From Thermoplasmata archaeon (GTDB lineage: Archaea; Thermoplasmatota; Thermoplasmata; RBG-16-68-12), in the NCBI GenBank assembly GCA_035636595.1, contig DASPYU010000009.1, positions 31,705 to 95,704 on the forward strand: DNA of 64,000 nucleotides, read 5' to 3'. The position numbers and the translations under genes were made by a program. This document shows positions 47,597-49,884 of the stretch, one piece after another; position 1 is the stretch's first letter; each line of letters starts with the position of its first letter. The notes under the pieces were generated by a model. That model ran no database searches, was not told the origin of the DNA, and saw only the letters and a program-made list of their open reading frames with translations.

Positions 47597-49234
47597 GTGG
47601 CCTTCGACATCGTGATCCGAGATGGCCGCGTCCTCGACGGGACGGGCGCGACATGGAGGGCCGCGGACATCGGCGTTCGTCGTGGCGTGATCGCCCGCGT
47701 GGGACGCTTCGGAAAATCGAAGGCCGGTCGCACGATCGACGCGAAGGGCCTCTACGTCGCGCCGGGCTTCATCGACATCCACACGCACAGCGACGTCGGG
47801 ATCCTCGTCGAGCCGACCGCCGACTGCGCCGTGCGGCAAGGCGTGACGACCCATGTGATCGGGAACTGCGGCGATTCGCCCGCGCCGATCGGGGAGGCGT
47901 ACCGCGACCTCGCGGTACGGCGGTTCGAGTACTACGCGCTGGCGAGGGATTGGACCTGGTCGACGTACCGCGAGTACCTCGCATACATGGAGCGGACCGG
48001 CGTCGGCATCAACATCGCCGGCCTCGTCGGGCATGGGAGCGCGCGGCTCGCGGTGATGGGGTTCGAGGAGCGGCCTCCGACGCGGGACGAGCTGCGGGCC
48101 ATGAAGGCCCACGTGGACGAGGCGATGCGCGCCGGCGCGTTCGGGATGAGCACGGGGCTCGTGTACCCGCCGGGGTGCTTCGCCGACACGGAGGAGGTCG
48201 TCGAGCTCGCGCGGGTCGTCGCGCGGCGCAGCGGCTTCTACGCCTCGCACATCCGCGGGGAGCGGGAGACGATCGTCGACGCGGTCCGGGAATGCATCGA
48301 GATCGGCGAGATGGCGGGATGCCCGGTCCAGATCAGCCACAACAACCCGAAGTACGGCGGCCTCGGGAAGTCGGACGAGATCCAGGCCCTCTGGGAAGCG
48401 GCACGGGCGCGCGGCATCGACGTCCTCGCAGACAACGATGCGCACACGGACTTCGGGCCGCCGCTCAGCCATGCGTTGCCGCAATGGACGCAGAAGCTGA
48501 CGACGGACGAACGCATCGCGATGCTGCGGGACCCCGCGAAGCGAGAGGACCTGAAGTCCGAGATCAAGGCCGACAAGCGCCCCGGTGCCGGATACGTCGG
48601 CTTGCTCGTCCATGAACGGTTCGACCGAATCTGGATCCTGCGGTGTCTGGGTGATCCCGCCAAGGAAGGGCTCACGTTCGCGCAGCTCGCGGAGCGTCGC
48701 GGCGTTGATCCGTGGACCGCGTTCTTCGACGTGATCGTCGACGAACGGGACGCGGCCGTCGGCCTATTCGACTACATGGACCCGGAGGAGATCAAGCGGA
48801 CGTTGCGGCACCCGCTCGTCATGATCTGCTCCGACGGGTGGGTCGCGCCGAAGGACGCCCGCACCTCGCCGACGGCGCCGTACCAACCGTGCACCTACGG
48901 CGAATTCCCGGGGATCCTGGAGCGGTTCGTCGTGAAGGAACACGTGCTCCGCCTGGAGGATGCGATCCACAAGATGACGGGGATGCCCGCCGCGCGACTC
49001 GGCCTCGGGGACCGGGGCCTCCTCCGGCCCGGATTCGCCGCAGATGTCGTCGTCTTCGACTTGCCGCGCGTCCGCGATCGCGCGACGAACCTGTGGCCTC
49101 ACACGCATCCGTTCGAGAATTATCCCCATGGCCACCCGGAGGGGATCGACTGGGTCCTCGTGAACGGGACCGTGGCGGTCGAGCAAGGAGAGCCGACCGG
49201 GGCGCTCGCGGGACGGGTCTTGCGGCACCCCTAA
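47597..49234 (+). CDS. N-acyl-D-amino-acid deacylase (D-aminoacylase), amidohydrolase superfamily
   Basis: 545 aa with the metal-binding HTHSD motif (GFIDIHTHSD). Full-length similarity to D-aminoacylases. Confidence 0.8.
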   Translation: MAFDIVIRDGRVLDGTGATWRAADIGVRRGVIARVGRFGKSKAGRTIDAKGLYVAPGFIDIHTHSDVGILVEPTADCAVRQGVTTHVIGNCGDSPAPIGEAYRDLAVRRFEYYALARDWTWSTYREYLAYMERTGVGINIAGLVGHGSARLAVMGFEERPPTRDELRAMKAHVDEAMRAGAFGMSTGLVYPPGCFADTEEVVELARVVARRSGFYASHIRGERETIVDAVRECIEIGEMAGCPVQISHNNPKYGGLGKSDEIQALWEAARARGIDVLADNDAHTDFGPPLSHALPQWTQKLTTDERIAMLRDPAKREDLKSEIKADKRPGAGYVGLLVHERFDRIWILRCLGDPAKEGLTFAQLAERRGVDPWTAFFDVIVDERDAAVGLFDYMDPEEIKRTLRHPLVMICSDGWVAPKDARTSPTAPYQPCTYGEFPGILERFVVKEHVLRLEDAIHKMTGMPAARLGLGDRGLLRPGFAADVVVFDLPRVRDRATNLWPHTHPFENYPHGHPEGIDWVLVNGTVAVEQGEPTGALAGRVLRHP

Positions 49235-49305
49235 GTCGACGGGCTGTCTCAACCGCGATAACGGCGGCGCAGTGTTGATATTTCCCGCAGACGAGTCTTC
49301 GTCGC

Positions 49306-49872
49306 TTGGAGCTAACGGGCGTTCTCAAGGCCAAGATCTGCATGATCGGCGAGGCCGCCGTCGGCAAGACTTCGCTGATCCGGCGGTACGTCGAGGACGC
49401 GTTCGAGGATCGGTACATCTCGACGCTCGGAAGCAAGGTCAGCCTCAAACGGATCTGGCTCACGCCGAAGAGCGATCCGGGCAAGCAACTCGAGGTCCAG
49501 CTTTCGATCTGGGACCTCATCGGAGAGCGTTCGTACCTGGAGTCGCTTCACCAGGAATACCTGCGCGGCTCGCAAGGCATCATCGCCGTGTGCGATGTGA
49601 CTCGCTACTCCTCGTTCGAGGCGCTGGATCAATGGATCCCGGCGGCCCTTCGCATATCGGGCGAAGTACCCATCGCGATCATCGTCAACAAGACGGACCT
49701 GAAAGACCAGGTCATGGTCCTCTACGACGAGAACGAGCCGCAGCAGAAGGCGGAGAAGTATGGCGGCTTCGCGGCGTGGACAAGCGCGAAGTCGGGTGAG
49801 AACGTGAATCCCGTCTTCGGCCGTCTTGTCCTCGGAATCGTGAGGCGGATCGCGACCGCTGACGCGGATTAG
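49306..49872 (+). CDS. Small Ras-superfamily GTPase (Rab/Ras-like)
   Basis: TTG start. G1 GEAAVGKTS, switch-I Thr (YISTLG), G3 WDLIGE (DxxG with Glu where Ras has Gln61), G4 NKTD, G5 SAK. Confidence 0.7.
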   Translation: MELTGVLKAKICMIGEAAVGKTSLIRRYVEDAFEDRYISTLGSKVSLKRIWLTPKSDPGKQLEVQLSIWDLIGERSYLESLHQEYLRGSQGIIAVCDVTRYSSFEALDQWIPAALRISGEVPIAIIVNKTDLKDQVMVLYDENEPQQKAEKYGGFAAWTSAKSGENVNPVFGRLVLGIVRRIATADAD

Positions 49873-49884
49873 GACCTCCGCCAC

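Follow-up and report, generated by a model that had tools for sequence, protein, structure and literature searches.

A Rab/Ras-like small GTPase with glutamate at the catalytic glutamine position, one member of a multi-gene family in Thermoplasmata archaea

The gene studied here encodes a small GTPase of 188 aa and lies on the forward strand (49306..49872) of the window, i.e. the whole 64-kb stretch of DNA that was analysed. It was recognised in the list of open reading frames (ORFs) and by its match to Pfam Ras, starts with TTG and ends with a TAG stop codon (49870-49872). The TTG start is backed by the orthologues, whose aligned start codon is TTG, GTG or ATG. Moreover, Lys8 and Lys10, both upstream of the first internal ATG, are invariant in the homologue alignments. 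The codon-position GC of the ORF is 0.60/0.40/0.83, typical for genes of this window of 65% GC. An antisense ORF at 49312-49884 was rejected as a gene on its shadow-type codon-position GC (0.84/0.40/0.61). The same-strand upstream neighbour (47597..49234, +) encodes a metal-dependent amidohydrolase of 545 aa (Amidohydro_3; Pfam and NCBIfam), and the other neighbours identified by Pfam are an amino-acid permease, an ABC-2 transporter and a class-III aminotransferase.

The 71-nt intergenic spacer between the amidohydrolase and GTPase genes contains a conserved motif, TCTCA-N5-GATAACG-N12-TTGATA (49247..49280, +), found by aligning 15 orthologous upstream regions. The motif includes two GATA-containing boxes, GATAAC and TTGATA, about 20 nt apart, the second of which ends 25 nt before the start codon; these repeats are direct, not inverted. 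Columns T22, T24-A26, G32, T34-A35, T50-T51 and A53-T54 are invariant in all 15 regions. The window has a single copy of the motif versus 0 expected, and among 86 fetched loci it is confined to the region upstream of the orthologues. It is also kept in two of them, L007 and L008, despite a different upstream gene. Judging from this pattern, the motif is probably the GTPase gene's own promoter or a regulator-binding site. An Rfam search over the window returned two tRNAs only.

All five G-boxes are present in Rab-like spacing, as a sequence-only reading of this DNA had claimed, and HMMER and BLASTP alignments show that the motifs, read directly from the sequence, are not misaligned. G1, the P-loop GEAAVGKTS (residues 15-23; 49348-49374, +), was read from the sequence and has Ala17 and Ala18 at the positions of Ras Gly12 and Gly13; A17, A18, V19, G20, K21 and S23 are invariant in an alignment of 53 sequences. 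G2 in switch I is YISTLG (residues 37-42; 49414-49431, +), where alignments to Rab6 and H-Ras place Thr40 at Ras Thr35, and where Y37, T40 and G42 are invariant in the same 53 sequences. Switch II starts with G3, WDLIGE (residues 69-74; 49510-49527, +), in which Asp70, Gly73 and Glu74 correspond to Ras Asp57, Gly60 and Gln61; the codon of Glu74 is GAG (49525-49527, +). G4, the guanine-specificity motif NKTD (residues 128-131; 49687-49698, +), has invariant N128, K129 and D131, and G5, SAK (residues 160-162; 49783-49791, +), has invariant S160 and A161, with K162 nearly so. Altogether 41 columns of the 53-sequence alignment are invariant, all nucleotide-binding residues among them. The replacement of the G3 glutamine by glutamate, also claimed beforehand, was borne out. 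WDLIGE aligns opposite WDTAGQ or WDLAGQ (HMMER, Rab6, Thor-Rab, Ypt6), and BLASTP, which provided the H-Ras register, places Glu74 opposite Gln61, Asp70 opposite Asp57 and Thr40 opposite Thr35.

The protein matches Pfam Ras (PF00071) with E = 1.9e-30 and 106 bits (cut-off 21.6), ahead of Roc (90 bits) and far ahead of Arf (34 bits). A profile of the family has its best match in Thor-Rab (7EZB; 117 bits, E = 6e-33), versus 103 bits for Rab21. The AF2 model (pLDDT 89.9, pTM 0.88) has the small-GTPase alpha/beta fold; it was computed without nucleotide and so is silent on the geometry of Glu74. The top 50 Foldseek matches of this model (TM 0.8-0.9) are all Rabs except for the Rab-like xRbj. A loop between beta2 and beta3 (residues 52-64, LTPKSDPGKQLEV; 49459-49497, +) exceeds its counterparts in Rab6 and H-Ras by about 7 residues, is moderately conserved among orthologues and was modelled with lower confidence (block pLDDT 81-82). 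The motif set of the Ras superfamily is found in this single domain of 188 aa (GEAAVGKT at 15-22, T40, D70-G73, NKTD and SAK), except that the DxxGQ motif ends in Glu74 instead of Gln. The missing Gln does not exclude the protein from the superfamily, because accepted members such as Rap, Rnd and Rup Group 1 lack it as well. The best explanation of these motif and fold data is that the gene encodes a soluble, single-domain GTP-binding switch of the Ras superfamily, of Rab/Ras-like ("Rup"/RasL) type, in line with the initial assignment.

Several other classes were considered and rejected. NCBIfam gives only the generic TIGR00231 (small_GTP; 47.1 versus a threshold of 42.5) and no equivalog, and the housekeeping GTPases Era, Der, YqeH and YsxC score 14-17 bits against cut-offs of 124-307; placement in a large housekeeping family, named in advance as grounds for abandoning the Rab/Ras-like assignment, was not observed. 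The Roco (Roc-COR) class was rejected because Roc scores below Ras and the 188 aa hold nothing beyond the G domain. The protein has neither the N-terminal amphipathic helix of Arf/Sar nor the C-terminal roadblock domain of Rag/Gtr, and neither group is the best profile match. MglA was rejected because that family is characterised by a G3 that lacks Asp (TVPGQ or GTPGQ), by an intrinsic Arg next to the G2 Thr and by a neighbouring mglB gene. The MglA/MglB polarity module is likewise built on a prokaryotic small Ras-like switch and is a model for the regulation of such proteins. A role as an anti-phage defence component was rejected, since PADLOC matched neither the GTPase nor the amidohydrolase nor two nearby uncharacterised proteins.

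Comparison with eukaryotic Rabs (Rab6, Rab21, Rab1, Rab8, Rab3 and Rab27) shows clear differences. These have a CC, CXC or CAAX prenylation motif, whereas the protein described here ends in ...VRRIATADAD and has Cys only at positions 12 and 96. It has Glu instead of Gln at G3, LGSKV instead of IGVDF in switch I, the longer beta2-beta3 loop, and an archaeal host. As the comparison standard for Rabs we take the RabF1-F5 motif set of Pereira-Leal and Seabra. By eye in the alignments, F2 (QLSIWDLIGE), F4 (YLRGS) and F5 (AVCDVT) are partly similar, and F1 (LGSKV versus IGVDF) and F3 (SYLESL versus RFRSIT) are dissimilar. The similarity ranking by sequence and fold favours Rabs; Vargova et al. found no specific sister relationship between Rabs and archaeal "Rab-like" sequences.

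The best match among solved structures, Thor-Rab (PDB 7EZB; Tran et al. 2024, PMC10933270), is likewise an archaeal, single-domain protein with a Rab-like fold and without a C-terminal Cys prenylation tail. However, the two are only about 33% identical. Thor-Rab retains the G3 Gln (WDLAGQ) and has Arg37 at the position equivalent to MglA Arg53, where our protein has Glu and Ser39, respectively. Thor-Rab is encoded in an Asgard genome, together with roadblock and longin proteins. The unassisted GTPase activity of Thor-Rab has been measured and is Rab-like (PMC10933270). The Rup proteins (Wuichet and Sogaard-Andersen 2014, PMC4316618) are also prokaryotic and single-domain, with eukaryote-like G1-G5, Asp in G3 and no MglB partner, and Rup Group 1 likewise lacks the G3 Gln. 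Yet Group 1 is bacterial and sits in a four-gene signalling neighbourhood, in contrast to the metabolic and transport genes around our GTPase, and Group 2 is limited to Crenarchaeota, whereas the host here is a Thermoplasmata archaeon. On these characters the protein fits neither group and would be an unclassified Rup. The Rup paper describes neither Glu at the G3 Gln position nor arrays in Thermoplasmata (PMC4316618).

Glutamate at position 74 is present in 120 of the 120 listed homologues (111 close and 9 distant). Of 161 family ORFs in related loci, which span paralogue groups mutually only 35-45% identical, 136 have Glu here and 21 have Gln, with only 3 others. This distribution indicates that Glu74 is specifically required, the alternative being almost always Gln and not an arbitrary residue. 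At the position of Ras Gly12 the GTPase has Ala, whereas Lys, Phe, Tyr or Val occur there among the paralogues. The P-loop is alike in Gln-type and Glu-type paralogues and does not specifically covary with Glu. More generally, a search for residues co-varying with Glu versus Gln gave none that is convincing beyond paralogue phylogeny, the differences following a single Gln-type orthologue group. A role for R36 as an intrinsic arginine finger is unsupported, as this residue precedes Thr40 by 4 positions and paralogues have K, Q, H, G or L in its place. We found no description in the literature of a natural Glu at the catalytic Gln position.

The sequence-only reading had called Rab-like GTPases sporadic in archaea outside Asgard, and this fails for the present lineage. 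A scan of species-representative genomes gave at least 567 related stretches, the best 80 of which all come from Thermoplasmata-type metagenome-assembled genomes (MAGs), with several paralogues each. At least 6 paralogues per genome are present in related Thermoplasmata, and the GTPase represents one orthologous group of this lineage-specific family; most paralogues carry Glu and some carry Gln. In the same MAGs, tandem arrays of 2-4 paralogues occupy fixed sites of the core genome, adjoining LonB and the A-type ATPase, with Gln-type and Glu-type paralogues side by side. The GTPase is indeed stand-alone at the locus analysed, as had been noted; the description does not hold genome-wide, because relatives with the orthologue also hold arrays elsewhere in the genome. 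Distant Glu-type clusters exist as well, and the few of them that are named all belong to Thermoplasmata or Thermoplasmatota. Single Rab-like genes in "Thermoplasmatales archaeon" and Aciduliprofundum were reported by Surkont and Pereira-Leal (PMC4915359). A literature search returned no paper on small-GTPase expansions in Thermoplasmata, and we could not find a description of a GTPase family of several genes in this lineage.

Small Ras-like GTPases are central to arguments on the origin of eukaryotic cell organisation, and their expansions have hitherto been treated as an Asgard hallmark. At least 6 vertically inherited Rab-like genes per genome outside Asgard mean that such expansions are independent, or older than assumed. 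The Thermoplasmata family can also serve as an outgroup for analyses of the Asgard expansions.

A Ras-family partner or regulator was sought near the gene. Six-frame translation of the 64-kb window revealed no second Ras-family ORF. Roadblock/LC7, longin and MEDS domains gave no match among 20 small proteins of the window at E <= 0.05 and none in the precomputed Pfam matches of the flanking genes, and no MglB/roadblock partner was found in the window or in the flanks of the orthologues. This agrees with the original observation that no roadblock/LC7, longin or GAP-like gene is adjacent.

What Glu74 does may be considered in the light of three proteins whose catalytic Gln has likewise been changed to Glu, H-Ras Q61E, RhoA Q63E and Gαi2 Q205E, which are the sole experimental guides. 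In all three the change is artificial or pathological and sits in a protein that evolved with Gln, whereas the Glu of the present GTPase is the evolved, invariant state. In H-Ras, Q61E raises the intrinsic GTPase activity (PMC2987813; PMC10515638). Our tentative preference, which we hold to be quite possible though short of even, is that the GTPase is a GAP-independent, Glu-catalysed switch. The protein would bind GTP-Mg2+ like other Ras-like proteins; the invariant Glu74 would orient or deprotonate the attacking water, as in H-Ras Q61E; and GTP would be hydrolysed without a GAP, so that the switch would time itself. The gene probably has a promoter of its own. We expect a regulatory role in the cytosol and not one in membrane trafficking, because the protein has none of the membrane anchors of eukaryotic Rabs and Arfs. 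GAP-independent hydrolysis would account for the lack of an accompanying GAP-like partner, and also for the tolerance of Ala, Lys, Phe, Tyr or Val at the Ras Gly12 position, the entry point of the arginine finger. The invariant natural Glu, together with the Gln-type paralogues of the same genomes, makes the effect of Glu testable; practical consequences will be modest until a function has been established or a rate measured.

It is also conceivable, but rather unlikely, that Glu74 cripples hydrolysis, and that the protein is slow or non-hydrolysing and mostly GTP-bound, like the atypical eukaryotic Rnd and RhoH or toxin-deamidated Rho, with its activity set by expression through the upstream motif, by exchange or by turnover. 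Ala stands in place of Ras Gly12 as well as Gly13, and in Ras itself substitutions of this kind reduce hydrolysis. The gene-specific, conserved upstream motif suggests transcriptional control. Furthermore, a Gln-to-Glu change by deamidation blocks GTP hydrolysis at RhoA Gln63 (by CNF1) and at Gαi2 Gln205 (by the Pasteurella toxin): basal and RGS-stimulated GTPase activities of deamidated Gαi2 are inhibited, and deamidated Rho is locked active (PMC3202810). The direction of the Glu effect is not predictable from sequence, because hydrolysis is faster in Ras and blocked in RhoA and Gαi2. However, many residues would do for a crippled site, yet almost only Glu or Gln is seen among the 161 ORFs. 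The remaining catalytic-site and switch residues are all invariant, and H-Ras Q61E is faster, not slower.

A GAP encoded elsewhere in the genome could instead supply the catalytic residue or residues in trans, with Glu74 serving in recognition of the GAP or an effector; we regard this as unlikely. There are precedents in RapGAP, with its Asn thumb, and in the TBC RabGAPs, with their Arg and Gln fingers, and Wuichet and Sogaard-Andersen proposed such a GAP for Rup Group 1 (PMC4316618). Candidates can be named from the relatives: a conserved ORF of about 103 aa, with no assigned fold, on the same strand 3' of the orthologue in some of them, a conserved protein of about 900 aa without a Pfam match that follows tandem pairs, and a MEDS-domain gene to which one paralogue is translationally coupled. 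However, all three are absent from the window, and none occurs throughout the orthologue group. In addition, the bulky Lys, Phe and Tyr at the Ras Gly12 position of paralogues would, to go by Ras structures, hinder a GAP that works with an arginine finger.

If GAP-independent catalysis by Glu74 were the case, it might extend to a whole network. Non-Asgard Thermoplasmata of soil and aquifers would then have a multi-paralogue Rab-like system with an evolved catalytic Glu and no need for GAPs, a natural chemistry as yet undescribed in any Ras-like GTPase, in which neighbouring Gln-type and Glu-type paralogues form a regulatory module. This wider proposal is speculative, and we consider it doubtful.

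Gene order might suggest that the GTPase works together with the amidohydrolase, aminotransferase and permease genes, for example by regulating or maturing the metal-dependent amidohydrolase or as a sensor of amino-acid supply. The neighbourhoods were compared with a gene caller based on codon-position GC, as a guard against GC-rich shadow ORFs. The order aminotransferase (-), amidohydrolase (+), GTPase (+) is common to 14 species-level loci, with a gap of only 25-80 nt between the last two genes. However, the amidohydrolase is not beside the orthologue in L006, L007, L008, L020 and L021, although the GTPase upstream motif is kept; L007 and L008 are in fact the closest relatives (84% identity). 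The position of the motif between both genes argues for separate transcription, and the paralogues lie in unrelated housekeeping contexts. Known NTPase maturation factors of amidohydrolase-fold enzymes, of the UreG type, fall into another class of GTPases. A functional link is very improbable on this evidence, and the amidohydrolase is probably syntenic context and not a functional partner.

Finally, the top PDB sequence matches are eukaryotic Rabs and Thor-Rab, but recent transfer from a eukaryote or an Asgard archaeon, contamination of the assembly and decay to a pseudogene are effectively refuted, as identity to these matches is only about 30%, GC and codon-position GC agree with the host, the gene and its context are identical in three independent assemblies, and orthologues with shared synteny and purifying selection (dN/dS 0.10-0.29 versus 18 orthologues) are present in at least 16 related species. 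The gene is real, and both the uniform GC along the window and the vertical synteny mark it as native to a Thermoplasmata lineage of high GC. The protein itself is not new to databases: it is 100% identical to an NCBI entry that already bears the label "Rab family GTPase [Thermoplasmata archaeon]".

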